Assembly (NCBI GenBank): GCA_008636045.1
Contig: SNRW01000051.1
Span: 1-34,580 of the forward strand
Direction of reading: 5' to 3'
From: Streblomastix strix
Taxonomy: Eukaryota
DNA: 34,580 bases
Shown here one piece after another: positions 28-34,580 of the stretch; the first letter of the stretch is position 1; each line of letters starts with the position of its first letter. Under the pieces are notes generated by a model. The model was not told the DNA's origin. It did no database searches and worked only from the letters and a program-made list of their open reading frames with translations. The translations under genes and the position numbers were made by a program.

Positions 28-1089
28 AGCAGTATAGAATGAAGAAGTTTGGCGTAACTTCAAAATCTTATTCATTATAATCAATTTTTCCACGATTTTA
101 GTACATACCCCGTCAATTTGCTATTTTCCTTAGAGCGGAAGCACATACATTAGTATGATTCCATTAATCGTAGGAAAATGCACAAATTGATGAAATAGAC
201 AAAGCGTGGATAAATTGATTATAATAAATATTAATTTGAACTTAGATGGATCCGCTCAGGAGCGACATCCATAATTTTATTTAATAAAAAATATTGTATA
301 AATTTTATGAACAATTTTCATAAGTGCAAAAATCTTAATTTTGCATGAATGTGAAAAACAGAAAAAAATATAATTTTTTCTCTACGCTTTGAGTTGAGTG
401 TATTATATCTTGAATTTTTAAAATTTATATTTTTATAAAGATTTAAATTTATTTTATATCATAATATTTCAGAAGCATCCATACGTGCCGATAAAAATTA
501 AAAAAATTAGAAATTCTCAATTTTAGCGAGTAATTTTATTTTATTATGTCATTTTCCAATAAAATTGAATAATAAATTTTATTTAATAAATAAATTGAAT
601 GGTAACTTTTTATTTTAGTTGAGATACGCGTGTATAATATGAAAAAAAAAATTAAAAAAAGATTTTCTTAGAAATATAGATTAAAAATATATATTTTTAT
701 TAGTGATTTACATTCAAATATTTAAAATTAAACAAAATAAATTAAATTAATAATAGTATTAAATGTATATCTTGCAAAAATCAAGAATTTCTTTTTTTGT
801 CAATTTTCATCGGCGCGAACGGCTGTTTAAGAAATATTATGATATAAAATAAATTTAAATATTTTAAAAAATATAAATTTTAAAAATTCAAGACATAATG
901 CACTCAATTCATAGCGTATAGAAAAAATTACATTTTTTTCTGTTTTTCACATACGTGCAAAATTAATATTTTTGCACTTATGAAAATTGTTCATAAAATT
1001 CTTACAATATGTTTTATTAAATAAAATTATGGATGTCGCTCCTGGGCGGAACCATCCACTTACGGCAAACATTCTTCTTCTGAGCAATG
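28..1089 (+). repeat. Left TIR of the Polinton (28-244 plus 1063-1089), interrupted by a foldback MITE
   Basis: 28-244 matches the reverse complement of the right end with ~11 mismatches in 217 nt by manual count. Similarity resumes after the insert (CGGCAAACATTCTTC...GAGCAATG). Confidence 0.93.
245..1057. mobile_element. Non-autonomous foldback/MITE-like DNA transposon with ~285-bp imperfect TIRs
   Basis: GATGGATCCGCTCAGGAGCGACATCCATAATTTT (245) pairs with AAAATTATGGATGTCGCTCCTGGGCGGAACCATC (1056), and the inverted match extends ~245-530 vs ~771-1056. ACTTA is duplicated at 240-244 and 1058-1062. The other two TIR copies show the empty site GAACTTAC. Confidence 0.9.
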
Positions 1090-4184: not shown

Positions 4185-6129
4185 TCAACCAGCATTAAAC
4201 GTACTTCCTCCAATCTCACCAATACCGTCAATATTTAACACTTACTGATCAGGATTATTATCAAATGTAATTCGCATAAATGCATCACAAAAATAATGTA
4301 GCATTGGAGTAATAGATGCTTTAGTTGGATCAGGATAACTTCCCATAGCAATAAATTCTTTAAAGTCATTTCAGTTATATTTTTATTTATCTTTGTACTA
4401 TCTAATACTCATTTAGTCAAATTATCATGTAAAATAACTTATGTATTTGTTCTTACACCTAGTTTTGAAGAGTTATATCCTCGCACAAATGAATCATTAG
4501 TTGCCAATTTTTATACAAGCATATATTTGTTACGATATAGTGTTTTAGTAACTTTTGTCCCATCAAATAATATAGATATAGCAAATACATTTACATCTCC
4601 ACTTCCATAAAAACCATCTTTATCAGTGCAGTTTAAATTTTTAAATGTAAGTGAATGATACAAATCTGATGGGGCACTAACATCATTTTAATCAACGAAA
4701 CAATCAAACATTAATCCATTAACGGTATGTGTTAATGCTTCAAATGGTTAAGTAACTACATGTCTTTAATCAATAATTAAATCAAAATCATAAAAATAGT
4801 ATAGGATAAAACCAAATTGGATACTATGGCATGATAAATGTCATGAATAGTGATTTTATATTAGAGAATGACGTAATACTTTACATAGCACAACTTGTTT
4901 CAGTAAAACCACTAAATGGGAAATTTGATGATTAAGATCTGAATACTTAGGTAGGGAAATTTACTATTTTTTACTTTTTAATCATGTTAACTATTGCTTC
5001 ATCATTTTCAACATTAAAACATATGTTCTATATCTCCAATTTTTCAAATTTTGCATTGTTAATTTAACTGATACTATTCTATGGTCCTCTCTAATCATTA
5101 CCAGCATTTTACATATTAACTATTCGTAAATTAAATTTCTAATAAGAAAATACCCCATCAGCTGTAGGTTCTTTTAATAGATATACTATGTCGGGTTTCT
5201 CAGGTAGAATCATGTGATAAGCCAAGTGTTTGTTTTATATTGCATCTTATTTGTTAAGCCAAACTACCTTCAAATCCTATAGATAATCTTATATCCAAAG
5301 TTATAGAAATAGTGAAGCATAATTCCTAGTAATAACAGGAAATGAATTAAAGATTGAATTTAATTAGTTAAGATCAAGATCACCACTAAATGTAGTATCG
5401 AAGTGAATTTTAAAATGCCATGGAGTTGTATCACATTTTGCATCAATATCAAATAGAGGCATATCAATAAATATTCCACAATGATGTTTACCACTAATTA
5501 TGCTTTCTAGTGGAGAAACACTAACGCTATTGCTTGAATATAAATCACTCAAAGAATTAGAACTAATAGCAGCATTTTCTCTAGCATATATTGAAGTTCC
5601 CCATAATGCAGTGGCATCACGAATCAATTGAAATTGGCGAAATGGTCCACACGCAGTGGAGAATCTAAGCCAAAAACGTAATCGATCAGAATTATCAAAT
5701 CCATCAGCTTATTTTCCATAATACTTTTATGCGCTTTATTTCAAATTTTTTATAACAGGAGCTTATGAATCTACTTTACCATTGAAGTTAATTCTCTTAT
5801 TTGAATCATCATCTTCAATATTGGTTTCATTTAATTATATCGCGAAAGTATTTGCAGGAATGGTAATTGTCCAATTCACTTAGCATGTTTATACCATTGA
5901 ACACGTAGCAATTCCCCTTGCTCATAGAGGTGCTCTAGTATATTTTACTCCACTAGATGTTTGTTCATTTACTGGTTAATCGGAGAATTATTGCTTGGAA
6001 ATTGAAAATTATCCAGCATGAATAGTTAATGTTTTTAATACTTCACCTAATTATATATAGCCAGCAACGTAATCAGAGTGTTACATTTTTTTGCAAACGG
6101 GCTATATAATCACTAGATTTGAATGTCAT
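4185..6129 (-). pseudogene. Putative major capsid protein (divergent double jelly-roll), ~645 codons, disrupted
   Basis: Long beta-rich reading MTFKSSDYIARLQK...FWLRFSTACGPFRQFQLIRDATALWGTSIYAREN...MLHYFCDAFMRITFDNNPDQQVLNIDGIGEIGG, with several frameshifts and TGAs. The MCP call is inferred from size, composition and context, not from a search. Confidence 0.6.
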
Positions 6130-6195
6130 TTCATTAAAACAAAAATAACTGTACTTTGATGACGATAATGATAATAAATTTTATATTAAATCAAA

Positions 6196-6405
6196 ATGGG
6201 ATTCTTCTCTGGAATAACGAATTTTGGATCGAAAATTTTAGGCGGTGTTAAGATAGCGGCGTAATGGGTAGCATCAGTATTATAAAAAGTTTTATCAACA
6301 ATATCTGGTCCTGTTGGAATGATTCATCCAGCTATTGGTGGCGCATTAGGTGATGGAGCTAATTTAGCAGGTGTTGTTGATCGATTGGTAAATAAACGTA
6401 ACTGA
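6196..6405 (+). CDS. 69-aa amphipathic Gly-rich peptide, candidate membrane-penetration protein (adenovirus pVI-like)
   Basis: Intact ORF MGFFSGITNFGSKILGGVKIAAQWVASVLQKVLSTISGPVGMIHPAIGGALGDGANLAGVVDRLVNKRN*. It has an N-terminal Met-Gly and lies between the MCP and fibre genes. Confidence 0.8.
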
Positions 6406-6425
6406 TGCAATTTATTTTTGAAGAA

Positions 6426-8438
6426 ATGAATAACACATTATCGTAACAATAAATCCGAACAGTTAGATAGTTAATCACTAACGATATTGCTTACTTTATT
6501 CAATATTAGAATTTAGGAAATTCTAGTGGTGGAACGATGTCAAACGATGAATATCAATTATTCATAGATAATAACAATGCATTAGTATACACCGCTAACA
6601 ACTAAATCGTCGATGGAATAACATCAGATTACGCTTTAAAAATAAAATCAAATGGGCTATTAACGATAAATAATTTGAAAGTGATTAATTTTGATTTTGT
6701 TGCTTAGATTAATTAGTTGATTAATTAAGTGAATTTATTATAACAATCAATTGGAACAACTGAATAGGATATCACTGATATAAAAAATGATATTGATACC
6801 ATTAATTATGAATTATCAAAATAAACACATTTCAGAGGATATTATTTATTGAATGCAGATATATAAAATTTGCCTAATTTCGCTAATGGTGATTTTGCTT
6901 TTAGTGCTGAAAGTGGAACAGTTTGGATGTTTGATGCAGCTTGATATAATGGTGGAGATATTGTGCCTGATCAAGTTACACCAACTAATGATGCAACACC
7001 ATTATCTGATGGTACAGCAACTGCTGGAATTAGTACAGATTATTAACGTGGAGATCATGTTCATACATTAAATATAACATCTACTATTCCATCTAGTGAT
7101 TCTGCTAGTGGATCATTTGATACAATTAATTAATATGAAAGAAACGATCATTCTAATCCTCTTAATATAACAACTTCATTACCTCCACAAGATAGTACAA
7201 GTGAATCAGTTGGCACAACTAATTATTACGCTAGAAACGATCATTCACTTCCAATTAATATAGAAACTAATGCTTCAAATATTCCAATAGTTAATGGTGT
7301 TGGTGTTAATGGAACATCAGACGTTTACTCTAGACATGATCACGTTAATCCATAGAAATTGACATATGACGGAAATGTTACAGCAACTAAGTTCATTAAA
7401 ACTGGAAGATTAACTTCAGATGCATTATGTGTTAATGGTGATATAAAAGCAATATCAGATATTGTTAGTAATTATGTTTACTTAATAACTAACTAAACTA
7501 TTACTGGAGTAAAAACATTTGATTCATTTAAGAAGACTAATCATACAAATAATGAAATATTATTAGCTGATGGGACTACTAAAAATGCAGTTTTAGCTAA
7601 AATTAATTATTATATAACAACTACAGAAAAATATATCAAATTGAGTTAATTTATTCCTTATATTAATATAAATAATGTTTCGGTTGAATTTTACATTAAT
7701 TGTAGGTATGCTTTTGGATTATTGCAATTCAGTTAAAATTATACCACCGAAGGAATTAGCCAATACTCTTATCATTTAGATTCTAATACATTTTTTAAAA
7801 GGGCTTATATTTTATTTTAAAGGACAGGAACTACAGATTATGGTGAATTATGGTGTAATAAGAATGCATGGAATAATAGTGTTTAAATACAATTAACAAG
7901 ATAAAATACATTTCCAGATTTGATATCAAATGTATTAGATAGTGAAATGGTTGATGCTTTACCTACGGATTATTCAAATAAGTTTTCTTTATTCTCGAAC
8001 ATGTACTAATCACCATTTTAAATTAATCCAATAGCTGGAAATTTTAATGAAGGACTACATATTGCTAATACTTCAAGTAATATATGTTTATTTTCAATAG
8101 GTTGCGATCCCAATTCAAACACTGGTGCAATAGCTAATTAATGGTCATTAATTAGAAGATCTGATGGTGCATAAGTTATTACACTAACCGCAAATTAAAA
8201 TATTTGGAGTAAAAGATTACTAATGAGTGCTGATGGAAATACATTAACTTTCAATGGATCAGTTATTGCAGGAACTGGAGTAACAAATGGTGCAACTAAT
8301 GGCACGGTTAATTATTCTGCTGGTAATCCAATCTTATGAGGTTTAAATAGTGTTGGAACAGAAGGTGGATTCTATAGTGATGGAGCTAAAATATATTGGA
8401 GAGCACATCCATTAACATTAGGATTAGTTCCTCCATGA
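6426..8438 (+). pseudogene. Fibre/spike-like protein (670 codons) with phage tail-fibre-type repeats and two in-frame TGAs
   Basis: A single frame with a coiled coil, four YxRxDHxxP-type repeats (~7040-7355), a QTITGVKTF motif and a G/S/T/N-rich C-terminus. TGAs fall at 6942 (DAA*YN) and 8337 (PIL*GL), both plausible Trp sites. Confidence 0.75.
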
Positions 8439-8927: not shown

Positions 8928-9514
8928 TATATTAAATATATTTGATTATCTCTTCAATTTTATCTTACATTGGTTCTAACAAACAAAAACGTTATTTTAA
9001 TTGATCATACAATTATTTTTCTTTAATTTATAGATTATTTATCTCAATTAATGCTTCAAATATTTTGAATATTTCATACTCAGATGCATTATATTATAAG
9101 TCAATACTTCTTGATAAACTATATAATTGTTCCATTCCATTTAACTCAAAAAATTTATTTAGTGGGATTATTTAACATTTTAAGATAAAGGATATATCTC
9201 CAATTAGTTGCTAATTCTAAATCTTTATTGGCTATAGCTTCGTTCAAAAATGTTTAGATTTATTCTTCTTACAGCTATGACCAATGAATACGTGGTTAAT
9301 TCTTGTCCATTTTTCTTTTGTAAAAGAATTGTATGATGCAAATCGTTATATTTAATGGGACCAATGCCATATCAAAATAACTCCATAATGTTTTTACTAC
9401 ATTAGCGGTGTCTCAGAATTTCTCCGGTATGGATGCTGATATGATTGATGTTATAAAATTAACGCCATAGAACATGTAATTCATTATTCCCATGATCAGA
9501 GATAGTATATTCAT
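8887..9514 (-). pseudogene. Putative membrane protein with two N-terminal hydrophobic segments, disrupted
   Basis: MNILSLIMGIMNYMFYGVNFITSIISASIPEKF*DTANVVKTLWSYFDMALVPLNITICIIQFFYKRKMDKNQPRIHW..., with a TGA at 9413-9415 and a frameshift in the A-run near 9150. Confidence 0.55.
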
Positions 9515-9530
9515 TTCATTATTTTTGAAA

Positions 9531-10523
9531 ATGACATTATAAGAATTATATGAAATAACATTTACTAATCAAGATCTATTGAACGAATATAAAACTGCAC
9601 CATTAACGATGAATTCATTGTTCATTATTAATGGTAATCATTATATTGTTGAAGCTGTTGGAAGTGGTAAAACAATGTTACTGTGTAAGCTAATTGTGAT
9701 TTCTAAGAAAATCATTAATCCCTTCATATTAAACTTCTCGAATTACTGTGCAGATGAAACTATGGCATTAAACCTTAATAGTAAGAACATTTAATAAACG
9801 AATGTGACTTATGGAGAAGTAATGATATTTCTACCAGAATTTGATGAGATTAAATACTCAACTAAAGAGATGTATACGTGGTACAAGATGAATGAGTAAA
9901 AATTATCATACACTAGTGATTTCATTAAGCGAATGGAAGAGTAAATCTTATAAAATAATGAGATAAAAAAGAATGAAAAACCTAATGATTATCTTAATAA
10001 AATTGCTGAACTATTCAAAGAAAAAGTAATCAAAACCATTAACACATATAATTAACCAACCAAAATATTGAGATTCAATATTCCTGCACTAATTCAAAAC
10101 GTTAGTTACCAAAAGAAATTCAAAATTACCGAAGATGAATCTAATGCTGACATAAAAATAAAAAAAATACCTATATTAGAAAAAGCTTAATTACTCCATA
10201 CGTTAATGCTCTTCGATGATATTGGTTCTAATGCAGATATACAACGATTCAGTTCATAATTATCTAAAACAATAATGCATTTGGTTAGTGATTCAAATCA
10301 TAGTAAAAATACTATTTTCTTTATCGCTTAACGTCCAACTTATTTGTTCAAGACAGCGAGGATATTAACCCATGTAATTTGCTTAGGCGTTAATCTTGGA
10401 GAAAGTGATCTAAGATAAGTGTACGATGAAAATACTATATAAAATTTAGATTTTGATGAATTCCAATAATTGTATAATACATTAAAGAAATATGAGTTTA
10501 TCATATTGAATAAGTGGATTTGA
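9531..10523 (+). CDS. A32-like (FtsK/HerA family) DNA packaging ATPase, 330 aa
   Basis: Walker A YIVEAVGSGKT (9651-9674, first Gly replaced by Glu), Walker B LMLFDD (~10203-10220) and the SNH...TIFFIAQ motif. The frame is open to TGA 10521, and the original stop may be 10548-10550. Confidence 0.88.
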
Positions 10524-10554: not shown

Positions 10555-13500
10555 TCAATTATCTTAAAATGAGTAATCCTTAGATTAAAGACCGAAAATA
10601 AACGGGCAACAACTCTAGTTCTCTAGTACGATGGCTTTTGTATGAATTCCGGTAATTCCGTTCTTTTCTATAGATAACTAGCTCATCTAATGATTCTTCT
10701 ATCCCAATCTCATATTAGTGCATTTTGTTATTTTTCCTTCATTAATGCAATCGACTATCTATGCTTTAGTGATTTTGTTAGTTTTCTAATTAACTCCTTT
10801 TAATTTTATTTTTGAATTGCCATTATAATTAGTTTCAATCATGTAATTTTTAGGAGCTAATGCAATCATTGATATTCCTTATCTTTCGATCGCTAATCCC
10901 AATATCTTCTTCTCATCATATACGTCACCTCTAATCGTGGGAAAGTAATATTTAGCATTATCATTATAAAATTCTCGATCATTAATTACAGCATTAAATT
11001 ACTAAGTAAAATCTTCATTTGGATTACCACTAATTGCCCAATAAGCTGAATCAGTATCTCCTTCAATAAAATGTATGCGATTCATATCTAAGCATTTATA
11101 CATGAAATTATATATGAAATTTAGATACCAATATTTAGCGTTATCCAATACAAAGAAAGCTACTTATAATGGTGTTTTACAGCTACAGTTTTCTGGATTC
11201 ATTTGTACAAGATAACTGTCTTCTGATATCTTTTGCTCATCCATGAACGCATTAGATCTAATTGCTCTTTCTGTCTACTTCTTATTCATTATTTTTACTT
11301 TATGATATTTCTCAGTGTTCATACCATCGCTGCCATATGAACTATTCATAACTATCTTAAAGAATTATTCTTATCCTTTATTTTCATCTAATTTTGCTTC
11401 AATCCTGTTTTTTGTAAATTCCTTAATAAATGAATTGAATTAATCATGTTTATTGAACAACACTATCTATTTCACATCATCTATAATAAAATGGCAATCA
11501 TCAATTAAGAACCATAGATAATATGAGCTAAATGCCATATATTCTCCCATCGTTGATGTAAGATTAGTTAGTTTCCTTTATTTTTGATCTGTCTTAACAT
11601 TATTGTTTTTCATATGATTAAACATATAACTACCGATAGTTCTTTCATCTGTTGTGAATTCATAATTCCTTAGAATTGGTGGGAAATTAATGTAATCGTT
11701 AATATAATTCTAATCAATGTGGCCTTTAACTTCTGCTATGAATAATTAGCCATTTTCTGTAAATCTCTTTTTGCTATTAATTATTCGCTATATTGTTTAT
11801 TTTGAATGGTCATCATTTCCCATAATCTTACCTGTCTATGATCCACACATATACATCTTATCATTAGTATACTTAATAAATTTATGTTGCTCTGATGACA
11901 TAACACTAGGATATAATGAATTGAAATCAACACCAACTACATGTGTTATTCGATGATCAGTTGTTAAAACTGTTACCTTCTTATTATCTTTATCATATTA
12001 GATACGTTTTATGAAATCAATTCCTGATCTATTAACTCGATGCATTACATTCGATAATCCACCTGTTATCCACTTTCTGACTAAATGATATACATCAATA
12101 TCTGTTAAGTTAGTTGGTAAACATCTTATCATACAATATTTACGTAATTATATGAACAATTTACCTATATTTTTATCTTTATCACTGCAGAAGCAATTAC
12201 AGTATAAACAACAGGGCTAAACATTATCTATTGAATGGCACTTTGAATTATCGATTCTATCTAATGTTGGCTTATTATTACATGTAAATTTACATCCACA
12301 AATGATGCAATTAGATTCATTGAATAATCGTTTGAAATATTCATAATCACTGTCTTTTACATTATTTTTTACATCTCTCTTTTTATGTTTATCTTGCTAT
12401 AGATATCCTTTCACTTTGCTCTACCAATATTGCTCAGTTAAATGAAATTTTTATGATTAATCTTCAAAATTAGGATATACTCCATTAATGTCAAAATCTT
12501 CATACGCTTTGGCATATTTGATAGCATTAGAGCATGCCGCCATACTCATAAAACTAAACATATCAATCTTATATTTAAATTGTAAGCTAATTAGAGTCAT
12601 TAATGGTTTGATCATTATATATGTATCTTACTCATTATAGAATTGTAGGTAATCCCATCTATTTTTAAATCGTTTTGCATCATCTAGATAAATCTAATAA
12701 TCCTTCTAACTAATCTTGGTTTTCTTTAATGATGAATTGAAATCTTCCATTGAAAATGGCTCTGATTTACTAAGTATTTCATTAACGTTATCAGTGTTGA
12801 AACATTCATCGGGAAATAATCCTTTTTTATCATCATATCCGTCACCAAAATCTTTAGCTGCCTATCTTAATTCCATTGGTTATAGATACGTTAACATATC
12901 AACAAATTTCACTTTCAAATTCAATTTTTTATGATTTACAATTATTAACTTTGCTGTTGATGAGCTACCAGTATAATTAATGATTGTCCAATCTTTACAT
13001 TACATTAATGATATAATTAATGATATATCAAATCTTGAGCTATTGAATCCAACTATTGGCACTTCAACTGAATTTGGAATTGTTATATCTATTGTCCAAG
13101 CCGCCGCTATTAGATATTAATTATCAGCATTAACTTATTCTGCTTCTTTAAATAATTAATTTAACCATTAAACTATGAAATTTGATCCATCCTATTAACT
13201 AAAGAAGATTTTCTTAATCCCTTATTTGTTTCGAATAGTTGATGCAACTGATAAAGGAAATAGTTCATACATTTAATAACTTGATTTACCAAACTTTTTA
13301 TTAACGATTTTAGGTACTGTTTCAAGATCATATGTGATGAAATATTGTGTAGGTTTATATTCATTTTCTCTACCATTTGCTAATAGATACTGAAAAGTCT
13401 TATTGTGCATGATATGTGGACAATAAGGTTTTTAGATATAATCCAGTTTAACTTTCTTAATAATTTTTCCACCATTATTCTCACATTTAATAGTGTGTTT

Positions 13501-15144
13501 CTCATAGTCTCTTGAATAATTTTTATCTTTAGGATCGAATGCTTTTAAGTTACAATGTGGGCAAAATTTAAATCCAGTTAATGCTTATTTATTAGCTATA
13601 GCAAATGCATGAGAAATCTTATTTTCCTCCCATTCTGATTCAACAACTAATATATCAATTGTCTTAATTACTTCATTTTAATCTTCCTATTAATACATTA
13701 TTTACATTTCTCTATAATAATTCTTATGTTCATTATCGTAATAGTAAATGTCTTAGTTAATTTTTAACTTTTGCGATACTATATTAGCGTATTTAGTTAT
13801 ATCTAATCAATCAAATACCTACAATAAATCAGTCATTTTTCAACTCTTAGAATCGAATGGTATTACTAATACTTAAACTAAATAATCTCTAATAATGCTT
13901 ATAATTGATTCATTTCTATAACTTTTCTCCTATGTATCAGGATGTAATGCTTTTGTTACTGCTGCTATATAGCAATTGTTATTATTTCCAGTATTTTTAT
14001 ATATCACATTTTTGTGATCATTATAGTGAAAATCGATTAATTCTTTCATTCTAGCTCAAACAATTTACGGTTAAAGATTAAATGTCTTGATTAACATTGA
14101 ATAGATAGCTATGAATCTTTACTTTGTACTATCTATTATATAACTTTACATATTAATTATCTCAGCTTTAATATATTGTTAAAACTCTTCAATAACATCT
14201 TAATTTTATATAACTTTAGGAGAATGTTCTTATATACGCGTATCTCCAGGTAAAATATATATATTCAACTTAAATTTAATCATTCTAATCATGCCTAAAT
14301 TCTTCATAAATGACTCCAAAATTGAATTGTTTCTTGAACGCTTAATGGTGTTATGCTTCATAAACTTCATCTACAAACATCTCAATAATTGATAATGATT
14401 AGATAACATTGTTATAATGTAATTGATTTAATTGGCCCCGCTATTCATCAATTTAATTTATTGTTCGTTCACGATTGAAACCTGTTCTTGCACTATCAAC
14501 TTTATCAATGAATTATTCCATATTCTCAGGTTGAAAATACAATATAAAACCTGCATCATTTTCTATTTAATTAACGTCTTTTCCATTATCCTGATTAATT
14601 TTATCTTTAATCTCTTTATTTTATTGTGCAATTATTTGGTATTGAATATTCGCTTCTTATTCTTCTTCCATTATTCTTCTAGCTTATTCCTATTCTTCTA
14701 TGATATAATTAGTCCAGAAATCATTAGCTTATTGTTACTCTTATTATTAACGATATTCCAATAAATCCTATTTATATTGGTTCTAATGATAATGAGTTAA
14801 ATCTTAATATAATTATTGGTTCTATTCTTATATCTCATCATAGTAGTTATCAGCTTATTGTTGCTATTATTCTCTACGATATTCCTATAAATCTTAATCG
14901 TATTGATTCTATTTGAAATGATTAATCATATCTCTTGCTTATACGACTTACATATTGTATTAATGTACTTATTTTAGATGTGCTTTCAATTCATAATAGT
15001 TACTTCTTCCTTATTTATTACAATCAATCTTGTTTAAATATTCATTGAGTTATTCTTTATGTTAATCTATTTTAATGATTCATTGACGTTTTTGTTGTTG
15101 ATCTTGATCAGCTTAACAATCTCCGCTTTCTTCAGGTAAACCAT
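10555..15144 (-). pseudogene. Protein-primed family B DNA polymerase: decayed N-terminal terminal-protein/vOTU-like region plus intact exonuclease-HNH-polymerase core (10555-13806 open)
   Basis: Motifs ExoI YDLET, ExoII GFNSSRFD, ExoIII FYNEQD, motif A DFNSLYPS, motif B KIVMNSSYG, motif C EGDTDS, PKNY and KLKGV. There is no TGA in 10555-13806, but stops occur at 13807, 13840 and 14056 and frameshifts occur further upstream. Confidence 0.95.
14726..14935. repeat. Two-copy 126-bp-period tandem duplication in the pPolB N-terminal region
   Basis: AGCTTATTGTT...CGATATTCC.ATAAATC occurs at 14726 and 14852, encoding QDLLEYRQQQEQQQANDF and DLQEYRREQQQQQADNY. Confidence 0.7.
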
Positions 15145-15191: not shown

Positions 15192-16662
15192 TCATTAAAA
15201 TTATACCTCTAACAATAAATTATTATACATATCTATATATTACATAGGTATTTTTCTTCCAAACTTATCATATAATGTAAACACTAACGTTTTGTTCTAT
15301 CCTATTAAGCATTATTGACTCATCATATTCTATCCCCATAGTACTGGTGCATCAATCAAATTTTGTTTAAAGCATACATTAAAGAACCCATTACCACCAA
15401 CTGATTACATAGTTATTCCTTATAATTGATTTGATTCACAAATTATTAACATTTATGGATACTCTAGAAAATTCCCTATATATTGACAGAATATTGGTAA
15501 ATCAACTTTTAAGCTTTCACTATTATGTTTCATTTAATGGAACCATACTTCTAGATCAATTTACTTAATTGCTGATGCTAAATTAACAAATTAATTAGCG
15601 CTATTTTCATTCAATCCTTTATATAGATCTTATCCACCAACTAATTGAACATACAGATTTGGTGAAACTATTATACGATTTGCCAACCAATAAATGTTAT
15701 TTTATTAACAATAATCAGTCACAACTTATGGTATAAATTATCCATAATAATTAGTTCTTCCATCAGCTGTATAAACATCTTACCATTCGCCTATAGATTA
15801 TGCAGGTAATGGACTGATAATTCTAACTGGAAATGTGTTAATATTATTAATGATTTATTACATTGTTTATTGTTATACATTAATCGGTTAAGTATCAGAT
15901 GTAGTAAATATTCCATTAGTATTTATAACAACTTACTTACAAAATAGATATCTAATTGATGGACCATTCCCTTTTGTAAAATGTTTTGGCTAAATAGATG
16001 TAATATAATTATTTGATGTAGGGCAATATAATGGTATTAATCTAATCATTCGATATAACTCATTAACTGTGGAATCTAAGATCCAATAATGATAAAGAAT
16101 TGCATCGATTCTAAGATTAATGCAATTGATCGCTGAATTCACTAAATCTTATCCATAATTCTAGTTTAATGGGAATAGATTATTCTAAAGTTTTTATACA
16201 TGTTCATTCATTGAATTATTGAAGCAAATTGCGCCGCTATTCAAAGTTGATTATGCTCTAAAATATTTCTCTGTTGTATCTGTAAAATTATCATATTAAG
16301 TTAGTGTTATGTATAGCAATTATGAAGTATATTTATAGCCCAGAATTGTTTGATCACTAATATATGCATTATTTAGAGCTGTATTCAAATTAATACGAAT
16401 TGGTTGTAGTCTATCTAGTAATTAGCAATGAAACAGATCTTCTCCTATCAATTGTTTGAAATAGGTTTTCCTTGAATAAGTTGATACTATATTATGCTAT
16501 ATTTCTATATATAGTCGTTATTCAAGTAATATGTTAAATTAATTGTTATGTTATTTATACTATTAACTTAAAACTTTATCAACCGCTAGGGATAGTTGCC
16601 TATCATTTTATATAATCCTTATCTGAATCTTAATTGATAATTTGTAAGCCAATATTAGTCAT
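15192..16662 (-). pseudogene. Putative minor capsid (penton, single jelly-roll) protein, ~490 codons, N-terminus disrupted
   Basis: The C-terminus TLVFTLYDKFGRKIPMQYIDMYNNLLLEVQFQ* fits the hxhxLxDxxGRx...hxLxhxF pattern of Polinton/PLV pentons. TGAs and frameshifts occur in the first ~55 codons. Confidence 0.65.
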
Positions 16663-18508: not shown

Positions 18509-19669
18509 TCATTAGAGTTTAAATGTTCTCTTATATTTTTCTTTTAATGTTTCAATACTATTTGCAACGATATTTGTGTAATATATTGGAACTTCTACAA
18601 TTTTAATATCCTAATACGGTTTCTATAGTTCACATACAGCATTTGCATGCTCATATCGAATAAAAGTAGCTATTTCATTAAATTATATACGATATTTTTT
18701 TAATCCATGAGCTGTCTTTTTCAAATCAAGATGTATAGTTATTATATTACCTTTCTTTAGATCTAATAGATTATCTTTATTTTATAATTCTTTAACATCA
18801 GCTAATTCCTTCATTTTTTATCTAATATATATTCCTTCAAAATCTTCATTCTAATTTACTACATTAGGAGAGAATTTTTATTTAAAAGCATTATGTTTTG
18901 CGTTATTGTAATCATCAACTACCTATTATAATTACTTTTTAATAGCCAATAATTAAGGATCATTTTCAAACGCATCCCTAATCGTTCTAACTACTGAATC
19001 AACTACTCTATTTTTATTAATGAAAGGAGATGAATTATAGAAGTATTTTATACCAGTTTCGTGAAGATATTACTTAATCTTTTGACTTCCCACCGTTGAT
19101 TCGCCATCTGATCTAATGTTACTAACAATCTGATTTGACTTAAGTAATCTTAAACATCTAAATAGTTCATTTGCTGATTTATCTTTGATTGGAAATACTA
19201 CTAAATATTTAGTGCTAATATTAATACAAAATAGATAATGCTAAATTATTTTATTAATTGTTGGATGCATTATAAATATTACATCAATTTCCCAGCTCCA
19301 TAATTCTGTTGAGATGTATGGACGTTTATACTTCTTTAATGGTTTCAATTTAATATCTTACACTATATCGGTTTTATTCTTAACTTTACTGCTAAATGGG
19401 TTCTTAATTTTAGTTGGTTCCTATTAACTTTTTGATTTTTTTAAGGATTAACGTTTGATTTTATTCGTTCAGCATGATATTTTTAGAAATTATCAAGATA
19501 AAACTTATATTATTAAGAAATAGTTTTATCTTCGAATTATTCCTCTAAATTATTGATAGTGAATTACTTTTTAAAATACAAAATTCAAATTCTTAATGAA
19601 ATCCACTAAATTAATTTTATCAACTTTGAACGCTTTGCCATCTAAAAATTATATAATTTATTTTTACAT
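18509..19669 (-). pseudogene. Retroviral-like (rve / c-integrase) integrase, frameshifted
   Basis: Motifs WEIDVIF (D 19283-19285), YLFCINISTKYLVVFPI, IRSDGES (D 19106-19108), NRVVDSVVRTIRD (D 18998-19000) and YNNAKH. Frameshifts occur in the N-terminal part. This agrees with the 6-bp TSD. Confidence 0.88.
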
Positions 19670-20000: not shown

Positions 20001-20030
20001 ATTAAATTTTTTCATTAAATATTTTTAATA

Positions 20031-20988
20031 CAGTCAGGCGATGTTTTTCGTTATTCGTTAGCATTTTGGTTAAATTCAAATGTTTAATTTTGCGAAGACA
20101 TTACAATACTCATCGAATTTCTGTTTTACTTCATAATATAAACCCTTATTACAATAACTTTTGACACAAAACTAAGATAATTCGCTGATACGAGCGGAAT
20201 TTCGCAGATCTACAATTTGCTCAGTAACTTCCCAGATACTTCGTTTTTTTACATTTAACAATCAATAATTTTATTATTTGCATAATTACATAATATACAT
20301 ATTAAAATTATAACAATTTTACAACCAATACACTTGAACAAACAATCAAGAATTTTGGATAATTTGACTTGCAAATTTTGATAGTGCCAAAGCACAATTG
20401 CAGTTCAAACTATGAATGAATGCGAATTGTATAAGTTGACATTATTATATATTAATACTTATCAGAATTATTACTTTTTTATCTTTCAGAATCCAAAATG
20501 ATGGTTGTTTTTGCCGTCAATGCAACCTTTTAGCTTTGCAAGGTTTGTTGCCATCCACTTTTAAAAGATTATATTCATATAAAACACTTTTTATCTACAG
20601 ACATGTTCAAAATTGGAACGATACGAATTGGAGTTGGATGAAATTTTAATAAATTATACTATTCTAGCGATCTACCCAACCAATTTCACCCAAAATCATA
20701 ATTTATGTAGTTTTAATTTTTTATTTTTGTATTTATATTTTTATTTTGTGTTTAAGTACCGTTTTTTATATAAACTTTTTTTTAAATTTATTTTCGTTTA
20801 AAATCGTCGCTTATGGCAGATTCAATAATACAATTTAAGTTTAAATACATTTTTCAGCAAATTTGTTCAATTTATCGTTTCAATTTTTCATTGGTATTAA
20901 AATATTTTCTGAAATTAGCACGTATTTGGTTTTTTTGGAGTGGACTAGTAAAAAAAGCTAAAGAATAACGAAAAACGTCGCCTGACTG
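20031..20988. mobile_element. Tc1/mariner-type non-autonomous element (958 bp) with TA TSD
   Basis: TA|CAGTCAGGCGATGTTTTTCGTTATTCGTTAGC ... GCTAAAGAATAACGAAAAACGTCGCCTGACTG|TA. The TIRs are ~32 bp with 2 mismatches, and no transposase motif was recognised inside. Confidence 0.9.
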
Positions 20989-21402
20989 TATTTTTAACTA
21001 GAAAATCGTTAACTATTGTATTTCTAATTACAAATCAAATTTTATTTAATATTTCTATGTAATTAATTATTTCATATAATTTAACCATAAAATCAAAACA
21101 ATTGAACTATCATGCATGCTACAAAACAAAGTTTAATAAAAACATTAACTTTTTTCGCCAACTCCTCTTATATTTATTTTACTAATTAAATAGTAACACA
21201 GAAAAATCATAAGGATTAACGGTATAATTACTATACACCATTTACTATAACGGTTTGCTGTAATCATAAACGCATTTGAATATTTCTCTGTAGTCGCACA
21301 CTTAGATTAATTAAATACATTGGCGCTATGGATTAGCGTTTATTTATTCATGATTCACATCAGTGTTGTGGATTAATGAATATATGAACGCTTATTCACT
21401 AG

Positions 21403-21643
21403 CACTGCTCTGAAGAATGTTCGTCGTAAGTTCAAATCAATATTTATTATAATCAATTTATCCACGCTTTGTCTATTTCATCAATTTGTGCATTTTCCTA
21501 TGATTTGTGGTATCATACTAATGTATGTGCTTCCGCTCTAGGGAAAATCGCAAATTGACGGGGTATGTGCTGAAATCGTGGAAAAATTGATTATAATAAA
21601 TAAGATTTTGAAGTTACGCCAAACTTCTTCATTCTATACTACT
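21403..21643 (-). repeat. Right TIR of the Polinton (~240 bp)
   Basis: Reverse complement of the left TIR, ending ...CTATACTACT and followed by the TSD TATGTA. Confidence 0.95.
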
Positions 21644-22482
21644 TATGTAAGATTAGATAAATATTAAGATTTGATGTCAAATAAACGCCTAAATCTGACT
21701 CTCATCAATGGTATTTGTTATATCAATGGATTTGAAAATATATCGAGTGACCATTTGTTTTGCATACCAAGACCTAAATGGTTTAATGTACATAAGCTTT
21801 TTGCTGGTTCAGGTTAAATTTCTTTAATTATTGGTTTTGTTATATTTTTTTAAATTTGAGTTAATTTGGTTTTAAACAGAGACTAGTTTTCATTTCTTTT
21901 CTTAAAATTATTTTGCTTTTCAATTGTTTTAATTCATTGCATTAAGTATGTATTGAATAAATTAAACACTTCTTTTAGATCATAAGTTTTTTTTATTCTA
22001 TATGAATGTATAAAATATAATAGTTTTACAAAAAATTTATTATTGATTTTGATTAGTTTATTGTTGATTATGAACATATAGTTAAAATGATAATTAATTA
22101 TTATTAAATATTTATAAACATTAAAAAAAATCATAGATTTAAACTTATTAAAAAAGACTTTGAAAAAAATTATGATTTGTTTATATATTCTCAGATATTG
22201 AAATTATAAAAAATGACATAAAAGAAATATGCAAGTGTTTGAGATATAGAATAAAATATTAGAAATAAAGTAAGAGTGATATTGAAATATATCTGAAGAA
22301 TATGAAATTTGCAATATTAATAAAGACAATTAGAAAATATAATTAATACAAAAAAAACTTCAGATATAAATTAATTAAAATAAATATATTTTAAATAAGT
22401 TTTATTTCATATTTGTATATTTTTAACAATATAATAATGATTTTATTAAATAAAAAAATTATTAATAAAATAGAAACAATAA

Positions 22483-25400
22483 TCAATTCTATTAATTTGA
22501 AGTAGTATAATTTTCGTTATCTGATTCATCTTTCACTTCTTAATGAACATCTGTTATGTCTTTTCCATCATCTTACTTCTTAACTGCAACTATTGGAATC
22601 TCATCATGTTTATTCTAGCTTTATTTAATGGATGAACCAGAGGGAAGAATTAATATTGGAATAGTTTCTGGCATTGGTGGATTATTATCAGCAATAATCA
22701 TAGGAGAATTGGAAAGATCAAAAATACTTTCAAATGAAAGAAATTGATGGGAATGAGTTTATTGATGTGATTAAAATGTCTGAGTTTTTGAAATATTAGA
22801 AGTTCTTGAAGAAAGTTGCAGATATGATGGTTAATTTTCATTTGAAAGGCTTTCTAAATTAGATAAATTCAAATTAAAAGAATTAATTGGAAATTATGAA
22901 TCAATATCTATTTATTCAGATTTCATCCTAGAATCATTGTTTGGAATTGTTTCAATATTTTCGCTCCAATCTAAGTCTTATTGTGTTTTATTAAAATGAG
23001 GGAAATGAACATTGAATTAAATACGCTGTAATTAAGATTTTTATATATTAACAATATTTTAATCTAAAATATCAAATTCTTATTCAACTTCTTTGCTTTC
23101 ATATTATTAATCTTAATTTGTTTATTTATCTTTGCTTAATTATTGGAAAGAAAGTTTTTCTTCTGTTTTTTAATTAAAATTAACTGTTTATTATTTTTCA
23201 CTTTTTGTTAGTGGGTGTTGAATGTTTTATATTTATCCTTCATTAATTTGTTGACTTATGATTCTTCCTGATATTCGGTTGTTTTGATCTTTATTAGTTC
23301 TGACATCTTTACTTTTCTCATACATTGAGTCTTTTTCATTCTTTTTATCAGATTTTTTATCGCACATCTTTTTTATATCTTTATATTTTTCCTAATATAA
23401 TTTCTTTTCAATTTTTGGTTTTGTATCGTTTTCAACATCTATTTTATATATTATTTCTTTGTCAATATTTTAAATTTTCTCTTTAATTTACTTTAATGAG
23501 AGTTTTACTTCTTTTAAATTAATTTATGTTTATTATTAATTTAATTTCTTTGGGTTAAACGATGGAATTTTTTATAACTTAAGAGGTTATTTAATAAGTT
23601 AATCTTTCTTTTTAGGTTACAATTCTTTATCTGGAATATTTTGTTTCGTTTGTTATTGTTGTGGACGAGAAATTTATTTTGGTTTATCAATTTATTATTT
23701 AGAAACAGTTTTCAATGGTGTAATCATATATACAGGAAATTGATCCTATTGGAATTTAGACATGAAATTTGATTCTTCTTCAGATGATGAAATTTCTTCA
23801 ATTGAATTAAGATGAATTTTAATATATAATTCTTTAGTTCTACTGGCCATTTGTACAATTTTGCTTTCTTTCACTAATGATTTGAATAATCTATTAAAAT
23901 TAAGATTCAAACCAGAATTTTCCAATAAATATTTATTATAACTCAGTTTCTCAGATATATGAGTAATATCAAAAGAATATTCAGATAAATTCATGCCAGA
24001 TTTCTTTGATATTTTAATTAAATTTGATCCAATATCTTCAGGAACGTTTCCATCTAATGAAGGATCATCATTAAATCTAAAATTTTTATTAGAATAAATT
24101 CCAATCTGCTAATCAAGAATTTCATTTCGATATTTATACCATAATTGATAATCCATTTTTCTTTCTCGATTAAGTGAATGTTGAAATTCAGTTTTCAATT
24201 TTTATATGAAATTGCCTTTAGGATATTTCATTGAAAGAAATAGTTACTTTATTCCTATTCGAGATTATTTTGTGAGAAATTGCATATATTTAGCTATATC
24301 ACTAGGAATATCTTCATGCAGCATATCTAATGGTTTTGAAATTGAACAATATAATGCATATGTAACATTTTAAAGCAAAGTTTCTAGGTTGGAAAATTAT
24401 AAGTTATCTTAAGTTCCTTCTGGATATTTTGAGCTTTCATAACTCTTGATTATTCGTCGAATAACTTCTCGGATAATAAATCGATGCTAACTCATATTTT
24501 TCATATATAATATAAATTATTAAAATGCATTCGTAATTTTTCGATAAGTTAAATTTTTCCAAGTTGTAAATTCTGAGTTAATTGGGAGTGGTGATAAACC
24601 AAACACAACTTATGATGTAGTGAATCTACCATTTCTAAGTCCATAAATATTTGGAATGTAGTCGTATAATGGTACTGGAGGTTAACGTGCAATACGGCCT
24701 GTTGAAATGAATTCGCGTAACGCTTGTTCAACTATTGATAATCGGAATGTTTTAGTTTCTATATTATGATAGTCTTAAATAGCTTTTTATTAACCATGAC
24801 TCCAAATGTCCCCAAAGTTCATATCATTCATAGCCAACACATGAATTATTAGGAATAAATCCATGATTGGTATATTATCATATGTAACAAGTGCAGATCT
24901 CATTATTTCTCCAGAACGAGAGAAGATTGCAAAAGACGGAATTGATGGCAAATTTTGCAAGGCTCCTTTAGGAGAAACTGTAATTTAAGATTGAATAATC
25001 CTACTTTGTTATTCAACTGATAATTATTATTCATCATCCAAGTCTTCAGCATAAAGTTCATTTTCTTCTTCACCTTCAACTTTCTCAATAATAGCATAAT
25101 TAGAATCATTATTATTAACTTCTAATTGATTAGATTATTCATTTGTAATGTTTTGATCTTTACTAGATTTAACTTATATTTATTCCTATTGTTCTTAAAA
25201 TTGTTATTTTAATAATTCAATGTTATTAAACATTTTTTTAAATAAATTATTTCTTATTCCTCCAAAAATTGCACTTGATCCTGAATTACACCTTTGAATA
25301 AATGAAAAATGCTGATAATTAGGAATTCTAACATTCAATACCAAGCACATTGGAAGATATTCATATCCTTCATATTAAACTGTTCTAATGATTTTAGAAC

Positions 25401-28400
25401 TAATTTTTTACTTCATTTTCTTGTAAAGTGGATTTGGTAGCATAGTATAGATAAGAATTTCTAAATCTCCAACAATTCCAAATTGATTGATTCCAAGTTG
25501 TGCTGAATCAATAATTAGTGTTGGTGAATATGCTTGTGCAATAAGTCTCGATCTATGGCAAAATAAAGATGCAGTTCGAACAAGATCCTGAGGTCTATGT
25601 TTCAACTATATTCCAGCAACAGAAGCTAAATCAGATGCAGATATTTATGGAAGTTTAATTTATGATAAAGTTTTATTTACATCTATAGATTTAGCGATAA
25701 TTGATTATTTATCAATTATTTATTGTTTATTATCTTATTAATCTTCTTTGGTAATATTATCGGGTTTGTTTGATAAGTTTCTATTTTATTGTATATGCAA
25801 TTAGTTTATTGGATTATTATGATAAGTTCCAAAGTCTTTATTACAATGACGACATCTTGGTTGTGCAAATCCTAATGGCATTATTGATGCTTTTGGCAAT
25901 TAAATCTTTTCTTAATCACTCTTCTTGTGAAAAACTTACAATGATGGAGGAATATATTAAAAATTTTGAATTAAATTTGAAGTATTTGTCAATTGTTTTG
26001 ATTTTCTTTTATTTTTTAATTTAACATTCATATTTTAATTTTTATTCGTATTTTTCTTAGCATTAATAATTTATTTCGATTTAGCAATCATTTATTCAAC
26101 AAGTTCACCATCTTTTGGATTAAAAGCACATAATCTACGCCTTTAAAAGAATGTAGAGTGGTTCAGATGTACCGGTTAGTTAATCTATATATCAACAAAA
26201 GCAAATCCTGTTGGTGCAAATATTAGAGCTGCACGAAGATGTTAAGGTACCATCATATATGAAGGAATAATGTTTGATTTCTTATGATTAATTGTAAGTC
26301 CTCTGAAAGAACTTAAATTATCATACTAACTAAAAGATAAAACAGAATTTGGAAGTTGAGAAATAGTCGGATGATAAAACGCTTATTATAAAGTAAAGTT
26401 AGTAATTGGTGATGGAGCTATGATGAGTGAAATATTTCGAATATTAAATGTAAAATGACTTGGAATCAGATATGATTCGATAGATCGTGTTGGAACTGCT
26501 GATATTTCATTGTTATATGTATAGTATTATTTCATCTTTGAAAGATTTAATCGATGCTAAGTTAATAATTATCCTTTGCTGTCATTCAAATTACGCACAT
26601 TGGCAACAGATGCATGAAATGGTGTTGATGAAAAAGGATTTTAGTTTTCTGAGAAAAGTGGATTTGTACATGAGCAATATTCAGAACAGATATATTCATT
26701 ATTATTTTCTTAAAGAGGATTCTTCAATTATTCATTAATGTTTTTCAGATTATTTTTAATTACCTCTTATTTTTTTGACTAATTTGCATTATGAAGATCA
26801 GCTTTCATAGAATCTAACTTATAAATCTTATTTAAAGTTGTTACTTCATTATCATCCAATCGAGATCCAACAATAAAAACGAATGCAGCTTTTCCATTCA
26901 AAACAACAAGTGTCGATGGAAATCCATAGATTCCTTGAACTCCTCCAATAACTCGAATCCTTTTTTGAAGTGTCAATGAAATATTTAGTATTTTCATTCT
27001 ATTGTAAATAGCTGTCATCGGACTAGTTGATAGATCAGCATATGTGTGAAGAATTTTGTCAGATTCGTCAATTGCATTCTGAATCTAATTATCACCGAAA
27101 TGAATTAAATTATTATTATTAGATTAAGATTTATTTTAGCTAAATTCATTTTCATTGAGTTGTTCTTCAAGAATTTGTCGAGTGATGTTTCTTGAATTTT
27201 CAAGAATATGATGACGAACAACTTCAAAAATGAAAATGTCGGTTATCATGCTTTCATTGAATGTTTCATTTTCTATATCAGGAACTTATTATTTTGATTA
27301 AGAATCTTCTTTATTGGAAGAATTTTCTTGTTCTGATGAACCAACTGAACTTTCTCTTCCAAGAACGCATAAAAGCGAACGAGCAAATCTTTCATTGAAC
27401 TCATCTGTGTTCATAACACTTAAAAGATCGGTTTTAATTTATGTTTATTTGTTTTTTTACTTTTATTCTTCTATTATTTTCTTTCTTTAATTCAAATATT
27501 CATTTTTATCAAACTTCAAATGTAAATTTTCAAATATTTCAATTTATTTATTTAAATAAACATTTCCATCACATTAATTAGATTATTATGTTTCATTATT
27601 TTTAATATTTGTTAATTATTATTAAAAATTTATTATTTTCTACATATCACTAATATATGATTCAGTTTCTATATTTTCTATATCTTCAATCGTTTAATTA
27701 ATATTATCTAATTTATTTGTATCATATTATAATTCTTTTGATGCTTATTTAAGTTCATTAATTGTGCTTCGTTAGACTTTTATTTATTCATTAAGTCCTT
27801 GTCAAGTTGGAATTGTTACACAAACCATACTGAAATAATTATATAATTGCGTTGTTGTTTCTTCAGTATTGAGATTGTAATAATTATCAACTGTTTAAGG
27901 TTCAATTGGTTATAATTGTTACTACGAAGAAGATTATTACTGTTTATTATTTTTCTTTTTTCCGAAATCTAAATTCATATTTGATAAATTAATCTATCCA
28001 ATTCGAAGATGCATTTCTGCTTCATCATATAAGATTATCATAAATGAATTTGATACCGTGCGAACATATTCATCATATGACTGATTTTATTAATTAACAG
28101 TATTTTAAAACGAATTTGATCTTTTGATGATATTTTATTCAGAAGATGTTTATTATTGTGAATAATGATCAGTTTTTATAATTGAATGTTATTTCTGGTT
28201 ATCTTTTGGTAATGGAAGATTTTCATTAATTTATATATCATTCTATCCATTAAATTTCGATTCAACATTTTCATCTTTAACCATCAACAATTCTTTGTCT
28301 CCAACAAATATTGATTGTTTTTTCATTCTATTCAATCTCAAACTTCGATTCTTTAAAGCCATTTTTACATTTGCAGGTGACAACCAACTTGGATATCCAA

Positions 28401-34188: not shown

Positions 34189-34303
34189 TCTGAATATAAG
34201 AATAATAAATAAAAATATTAATAATTTTTCATTGAGCAAAGGAAATGAAAAATAAATAAAATTAAAATGAATTAAGAAATAATGAATATATTCCAAATAT
34301 AAG

Positions 34304-34580
34304 AGTAGTATAGAATGAAGAAGTTTGTGGTAAGTTCAAAATCGTATTTATTATAATCAATTTACCCGCGATTTTGAACTTTTTTCGTCAATTTGCAAAA
34401 ATCCCTAGAGCGGAAGCACATACATGTGTATGGTTCCATTAATCATAGGAAATTGTACAAATTGATGAAATAGAACAAATGTGAATAAATTGATTATAAT
34501 AAATATGGATTTCGAACTTACCGCAAACATTCTTCAGAGCAATGTTATTAATTAATAAAAAATAAATTATTGAGGGTTAG
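34304..34580 (+). mobile_element. Left terminus (TIR) of a second, related Polinton running off the window
   Basis: Starts AGTAGTATAGAATGAAGAAGTTTG and is colinear with the TIR but more diverged. Beyond the TIR it resembles the left subterminal sequence at ~1118-1150 (ATTAATTAATAAAA..ATAAATTA..GGGTT). Confidence 0.88.

Follow-up and report, generated by a model that had tools for sequence, protein, structure and literature searches.

A stand-alone gene for an amphipathic peptide beside the capsid gene of a Polinton-like element in the oxymonad Streblomastix strix, with a possible counterpart in virophage capsid tails

What is encoded by a 69-codon reading frame lying between a capsid gene and a fibre-like gene in the genome of the oxymonad Streblomastix strix, a protist of the termite gut, and to which viral proteins might its product be related? 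The frame occupies positions 6196..6405 (+) of the window, by which we mean the whole 34,580-nucleotide stretch analyzed here (contig SNRW01000051.1 of assembly GCA_008636045.1). A sequence-only reading had taken it for a stand-alone membrane-lytic peptide resembling that of adenovirus protein VI (pVI), starting directly at Met-Gly, possibly myristoylated and in no need of maturation cleavage, while allowing that the match was short and might be convergent. The follow-up upholds a gene that is real, selected and stand-alone, lies in a structural module without a detected protease and specifies an amphipathic peptide of helix-hinge-helix layout, but the C-terminal tail of virophage capsid proteins is a better match than pVI.

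The window carries a 21.6-kb Polinton-like element. Its terminal inverted repeats of 217 bp (28..244 on the + strand and 21427..21643 on the − strand) are identical at 206 of 217 positions, and the same 6 bp stand before the left repeat (22-27) and after the right one (21644-21649). Because of this matching target duplication the repeats can be taken as the element ends, and the alternative that they belong to a small non-autonomous element is ruled out. Terminal repeats, 6-bp duplication, integrase, pPolB, ATPase and capsid, which are the criteria for a Polinton/Maverick, are all present, the polymerase and ATPase being recognized by motifs only (polymerase B and Walker motifs, in reading frames without a Pfam match whose labels are presumptive). 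The retroviral-type integrase (18509..19468, −) matches Pfam rve with E=1.8e-4, which is under the curated cut-off; a likely packaging ATPase (9333..10523, +) is so labeled from Walker A and B-like motifs in its translation, with no significant Pfam match; and a reading frame at 10555..13806 (−), again without a Pfam match, has a tentative label. A 488-codon open frame at 15192-16658 (−) has a C-terminal motif that we take to be penton-like, but its candidacy as the penton gene was given up, as a virophage penton profile gave no support. The sequence contains several other repeats: within the terminal repeat itself there is an inverted repeat of 44 bp, another of 286 bp (88%; 245-530 and 771-1056) adjoins the left terminal repeat on its inner side, and a 41-bp inverted repeat (93%), possibly a small insertion, is found near the right end with its arms 884 bp apart (20027-20067 and 20952-20992). 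Outside the element there are two host reading frames of about 1,720 aa (22483-27645 and 27802-32982, −) without a Pfam match, and a further element begins at the contig end, as seen from a third copy of the terminal repeat (34303-34580, 86% identical).

A maturation protease was not found in this decayed copy by Pfam (34 window segments) or by a motif scan (285 segments), and the best match to an HMM of 19 virophage proteases, with an E-value of 0.049, lies outside the element, these searches covering one decayed copy. In the available part of one account, Gosseviruses are called the only major group of Polinton-like viruses (PLVs) with a core protease, and a Metamonada group of endogenous Polinton-like viruses is left unplaced (10.64898/2026.06.19.733378); elsewhere S. 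strix elements are reported to group with Trichomonas capsids (PMC10120064). No peptide gene is mentioned for Metamonada elements in the accessible portions of these two sources, and further background can be found in what is available of PMC4405056.

Whether the reading frame exists at all depends on the genetic code. Codons 23 and 30 of 6196-6405 (+) are in-frame TAA, and the frame gives 69 aa only under table 6, in which TAA and TAG specify Gln, the code of both S. strix and its endogenous viruses according to the accessible text of Bellas et al. (PMC10120064). The 69-aa frame described earlier as intact is thus real under table 6 and backed by a family, but closed in the standard code; the N-terminus and the ISGPVG hinge quoted for it are both found in its translation. 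A sequence search returned 60 other matching proteins, 59 from S. strix and one a JGI record, and a wider profile matched 189 clusters at E<=0.1, 120 of which were listed. From these, 89 intact members of 68-70 aa starting with Met were used as the profile set, covering subfamilies that are about 50% identical to each other, so the conservation among copies on which the earlier proposal depended is clearly present. Since 60 proteins and 189 clusters match, and since the variants shared among copies are mostly synonymous, the frame must be more than a chance opening. Pfam and PDB sequence searches with the peptide gave no significant match (in Pfam also for 43 members and 25 more distant relatives), three profile scans of viral contigs with peptide-family or capsid alignments gave no relative, and the pattern for a stand-alone start found 10 matches, none belonging to the family. 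Outside S. strix, four proteins on short metagenome contigs are distant relatives scoring 39-46 bits (P0133, P0140, P0141 and P0129), and in P0141 a Gly-Gly pair immediately precedes the helix, possibly representing a cleaved form. No description of the S. strix family was met with in the literature searched, which comprised few subscription papers, nor anything relevant in the available parts of 10.1101/2025.10.09.676808, PMC4964394 and PMC5769502.

The family is under purifying selection, whereas the copy in the window is a decaying relic. Variants were taken from contigs of four runs (two samples) aligned to the reading frame, and each variant base was classed singly against the window codon, by which a few double-hit codons will be misclassed. 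Among the other copies, shared variants comprise 27 synonymous and 6 non-synonymous changes (pN/pS about 0.08; 40 of 46 variant rows listed), while changes private to the window copy comprise 2 synonymous and 5 non-synonymous ones (Fisher P=0.011 against the shared variants). It is this contrast that identifies a selected gene with a decaying local copy, and the test of the dN/dS type suggested beforehand has therefore come out in favor of the gene. The survival of an open frame within a decayed module, which had been counted as evidence, tells us nothing: the capsid gene has two frameshifts and two to four stops and the fibre-like gene two stops, and from these lesions the chance that 69 codons stay open is 0.52-0.85.

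The capsid gene lies upstream in the opposite orientation (4185..6086, −). Its product, the major capsid protein, is probably of the double jelly-roll type, though the fold matches are weak: with an AlphaFold2 model that is itself poor (mean pLDDT 49), the top rows of two fold searches were mixed double jelly-roll capsids, with Foldseek E-values of 0.005 and weaker and a VIA match of Z 5.3 (rmsd 4.3 over 144 aligned residues); the Sputnik MCP family of Pfam was not matched by the window protein. The divergent start codons of the capsid and peptide genes are separated by a 109-bp spacer (6087..6195), which may serve as a shared promoter region. This head-to-head layout is general, because in at least 14 cases a peptide and a capsid with neighboring locus tags come from contigs of equal length (counted by eye, 120 of 282 capsid matches being listed) and antisense capsid sequence is joined to the peptide in 11 of 80 further gene models. 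Among the 120 capsids listed, all 49 showing the C-terminal motif end at most 10 residues past it without an amphipathic tail, as does the window protein. With respect to the last residue, 36 of the 49 end in Gly, one more is partial and 12 end otherwise (window 4185-4230, −, included), the Gly ends being like that of the Sputnik capsid chain after processing. As the two genes are divergent rather than tandem, a simple splitting of one gene does not account for the arrangement.

On its other side the peptide gene is followed by a gene with two internal stops and repeated R-x-D-H-x-H motifs (6426..8438, +; no Pfam match), which on account of that repeat we take to encode a fibre. An ATG at 6405, in frame with and upstream of the fibre gene start, overlaps the peptide stop; the idea that this overlap of stop and start (6403-6407) couples the translation of the two genes was considered and rejected, as other copies have indels there. 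A more substantial alternative is that the frame is exon 1 of a peptide-fibre fusion formed by splicing, the helix being an N-terminal anchor of the fibre instead of a free peptide. In 23 of 80 representative matches the gene model is indeed joined to the fibre, one junction type recurs in 7 of the 24 junctions inspected, and a GT that could act as a donor is present at the Leu64/Val65 boundary. The other 17 junctions differ, however, and there are models in which the peptide is fused to antisense capsid sequence or to other genes, a pattern to be expected when genes are predicted in decayed DNA. Asn66 (86/89) and Arg68 (69/89) are kept even in subfamilies that have Leu or Ile at position 65 and hence lack the donor, several models show conservation of the fibre's own N-terminal stretch, which the supposed intron would contain, and 89 peptide models stand alone. 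We therefore consider the exon interpretation improbable, and a stand-alone gene the better reading of these sequences.

Residues 2-37 of the peptide (6199..6306, +) form a predicted cationic amphipathic helix that would be its membrane-active part, as judged from moment, AlphaFold2 and column conservation, and are followed by a Gly-Pro/His-Pro hinge and a second, Gly/Ala-rich helix; the AlphaFold2 model is all-helical, with two helices broken at 44-45 and a mean pLDDT of 68. The amphipathic moment that the first description called for was borne out: muH is 0.54 for residues 2-19 (P=0.003 against shuffles) and 0.43 for residues 2-37 (P=0.0002), and the family medians are the same as the values of the window copy, residues 20-37 and 51-68 taken alone having no significant moment against shuffles. 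The net charge is +6 in the family median and +4 in the window copy. All 89 members have Met right before the helix, in agreement with a start at Met-Gly without a propeptide; Gly2 is found in 83 of 89 members and Phe3 in 85. The suggested myristoylation is in turn unlikely, because of the Phe after Gly2, because the PROSITE pattern (as printed in the accessible part of PMC5848158, and only a rough guide that may not hold for the oxymonad enzyme) fits 3 of 89 members, and because phage proteins share the MGFFSG start with the peptide.

A peptide of this type might also act outside the virion, as a cecropin-like antibacterial agent directed at the bacterial symbionts of the host or as a host-lysis peptide used for exit. 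The nearest named cluster in the Atlas is in fact cecropin (0.77, below the lead threshold), and 2 of 43 members have weak Pfam matches to frog antimicrobial families (E 0.17-0.34), but all these matches are far below thresholds, neither a signal peptide nor a propeptide is apparent in the sequence, and the gene is in fixed linkage with that of the capsid. Such a role must be regarded as most improbable.

The likeness to pVI that was first noticed is confined to a short stretch. After Met-Gly-Phe, some divergent paralogues read WSGLKNFGS, nine residues identical in mastadenovirus pVI; some paralogues have the motif W-S-G-[IL]-K-N-F-G unchanged and the window copy has a variant of it, and the motif is present also in the phage proteins used as decoys. 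The hydrophobic moments of pVI and the peptide are similar as well. HHalign gave 34-37 bits against pVI over 14-16 columns (35.7 bits with the 89-member profile), above 60 of 60 shuffles, and with a pVI HMM the peptide frame ranked first of 846 window segments (E=0.047), although the pVI set had been fetched by the shared motif in the first place. In the Atlas, MCPVI is among the two nearest named clusters (0.75, below the lead threshold). Outside the motif the pVI match amounts to 8.8 bits, no better than that of decoys: phage proteins reached 33.3 bits (podovirus protein), 30.6 bits (jumbo-phage) and 27.5 bits (tape measure) overall, and 8.8-15.8 bits outside the motif. Pfam PF02993 (MCPVI) was not matched by the peptide, by 43 members or by 25 more distant relatives, against 1e-40 for a pVI control. 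There are also structural differences, since the helix of pVI follows a diglycine site from which adenain removes an N-terminal propeptide, and pVI has about 250 aa with a C-terminal protease cofactor and import signals, whereas the peptide, of 68-70 aa, has neither propeptide nor C-terminal domain. That the peptide is a true orthologue of the pVI lytic domain is thus very unlikely. The caution voiced at the outset, that the match was short and might be convergent, has proved apt (about 15 columns and 36 bits, against 28-33 for phage decoys), and pVI as the specific relative is not sustained.

A stronger resemblance is found in virophages. The WSGLKNFGS-type motif matches 44 viral stretches, of which 36 resemble adenovirus pVI (Pfam confirmed one of them), five belong to tape-measure-like proteins of phages or to jumbo-phage proteins and have Thr in place of Ser, and three are C-terminal tails of Sputnik-type capsid proteins, where the motif comes just after a Gly-rich site. 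Virophages were then fetched by capsid homology, yielding 29 loci, five of which were dropped since the match fell short of the capsid end; all 24 complete capsids carry such a tail, and all represent one Sputnik-like clade. The 89-member profile aligned with the tails at 59.7 bits over 41 columns, or at 57.7 bits when the three rows picked by motif were left out. With the motif removed, 23.6 bits remained, a score that none of 300 shuffles preserving the hydrophobic, small and polar pattern could reach (mean 10.7, maximum 22.9). An HMM built from the tails alone placed the peptide frame first of 846 window segments with E=5.5e-7, the next having 0.13. The MCP-C1 region of virophages and the peptide have in common a start of the form aromatic-Ser-Gly-Leu-Lys-x-Phe-Gly, a basic amphipathic helix and a His-Pro hinge, and the N-terminus of the peptide lines up with what follows the diglycine site in the tails. 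In the available text of Born et al. (PMC6048507), the mavirus protease cleaves the tail of the capsid protein at diglycines, and the amphipathic helix predicted in MCP-C1, the first fragment, is proposed to rupture endosomes, tail fragments not having been detected in virions. The layouts differ. The virophage tail is fused to the capsid protein behind GG or GxG and is freed by the viral cysteine protease, whereas the S. strix peptide is encoded by a separate, divergent gene next to that of a tail-less capsid protein, no protease having been detected, and it lacks the arginine-rich distal tail of virophages.

These scores must be read against what convergence alone can produce. When virophage tails were scored singly with the family HMM, the median was 9 and the maximum 20.5 bits, against 16-19 for phage decoys, and a blind search of 1.84 billion proteins returned neither a virophage tail nor pVI at E<=0.001. 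From the same number of proteins, an unnamed and apparently unrelated pair of 261-266 aa picked by score (P0138/P0145) reached 51.9 bits overall and 34.1 bits outside the motif, more than the tails do there, which shows that convergence can attain about 52 bits. Given the decoy scores and the blind-search negatives, the link with pVI is indistinguishable from convergence and that with virophages is better but not proven. The peptide is probably a counterpart of the virophage MCP-C1 fragment rather than a pVI orthologue, and it is plausibly homologous to that fragment. As a separate observation, Sputnik-type tails (L057-L083) and mastadenovirus pVI (L013-L056) have almost the same motif, placed in both a few residues past the diglycine site; HHalign aligned the two at 34 bits, with nothing outside the motif. 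A motif common to the two was not described in the literature searched, in which subscription papers were few.

Similar N-termini also occur in viruses of bacteria, among podovirus ejection-cluster and tape-measure virion proteins whose amphipathic helices are N-terminal or repeated, some with an MGFFSG start and others with a near-identical motif. Twelve metagenome loci (L001-L012) encode a protein of 122-129 aa with the MGFFSG start; in the one inspected (L001:6616-6984) the 122-aa protein, which has no significant Pfam match, is encoded among large virion-type genes on a contig that seems podovirus-like, and the phage protein is a candidate membrane-active ejection protein. Other entry peptides of eukaryotic viruses were considered as well. 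Cupiennin and PLA2X of adintoviruses are predicted membrane-active virion proteins encoded by separate genes in Polinton-like viruses (PMC8502044, accessible part), and LO6 of adomaviruses has moderate HHpred matches to pVI and clusters with cupiennin (10.1101/341131, accessible part). These come from animal viruses that encode adenain (10.1101/2025.02.07.637071, accessible part), the comparison with our peptide being by description only, and none appears by name among the family matches listed. The nodavirus gamma peptide, to which the sequence-only reading had also likened the layout, is absent from the matches of a PDB search with the family profile; it is released autocatalytically from the capsid of an RNA virus, whereas the S. 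strix peptide belongs to a dsDNA element.

A protein with such an N-terminus need not be lytic. It could be a virion or assembly protein, such as a scaffold, an inner cement or a membrane anchor for assembly or exit, with a merely convergent likeness to lytic peptides. Cationic amphipathic helices commonly converge and decoys score 28-52 bits, the MGFFSG start is shared by the 122-aa podovirus protein beside ejection-type genes, and Born et al., in the text available, name scaffolding and DNA tethering among the functions of the virophage tail (PMC6048507). Against this interpretation, the virophage-tail match extends past the motif and scores above shuffles that preserve the pattern, pVI and virophage tails equal the peptide in aromatic N-terminus, net charge (+6) and moment (0.54), and Pfam revealed neither a lipase nor any other entry gene in the element. 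A non-lytic role deserves to be kept in mind, but we regard it as rather unlikely.

From these comparisons, we lean, if not strongly, towards a virion-borne membrane-lytic peptide that is made ready-cut from its own gene beside the capsid gene of an oxymonad Polinton-like virus. The peptide would be co-expressed with the capsid protein from the 109-bp spacer and packaged inside the virion. Loss of Met1 would expose Gly-Phe-Phe/Trp, which lines up with the residues just past the diglycine cleavage site of virophage tails, so that no viral protease would be needed. The peptide may then be held inactive against the inner capsid surface; that of pVI, the lytic peptide, shows no activity as long as it is hexon-bound (10.1101/857581, accessible part). 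After partial uncoating, residues 2-37 could insert into the bilayer and rupture the membrane of the vacuole or endosome.

Entry factors proposed for Polintons, PLVs and virophages include lipases, SLATT pores and venom-like peptides (PMC8502044 and PMC12220804, available parts), the SLATT pores being suggested for cryptophyte PLVs (PMC12220804), and that the virophage capsid tail is lytic is itself a prediction (PMC6048507, available part). It is tempting to speculate that one ancestral lytic helix has served entry throughout the Preplasmiviricota in three layouts, as the front of pVI, as the virophage capsid tail and as the stand-alone gene of metamonad Polintons, although we think this doubtful. 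If it were true, the helices of pVI and virophages would be those freed at a diglycine by a viral protease, the metamonad Polintons would be protease-less, and the oxymonad peptide would be the link showing the common helix. Selection on a peptide gene beside a capsid gene argues that the S. strix elements spread as particles. The peptide would make it understandable that an element lacking a maturation protease might nevertheless have a lytic helix, and its family provides the unplaced Metamonada group with a short, synthesizable entry candidate through which the idea of a lytic virophage tail may be tested directly on liposomes.
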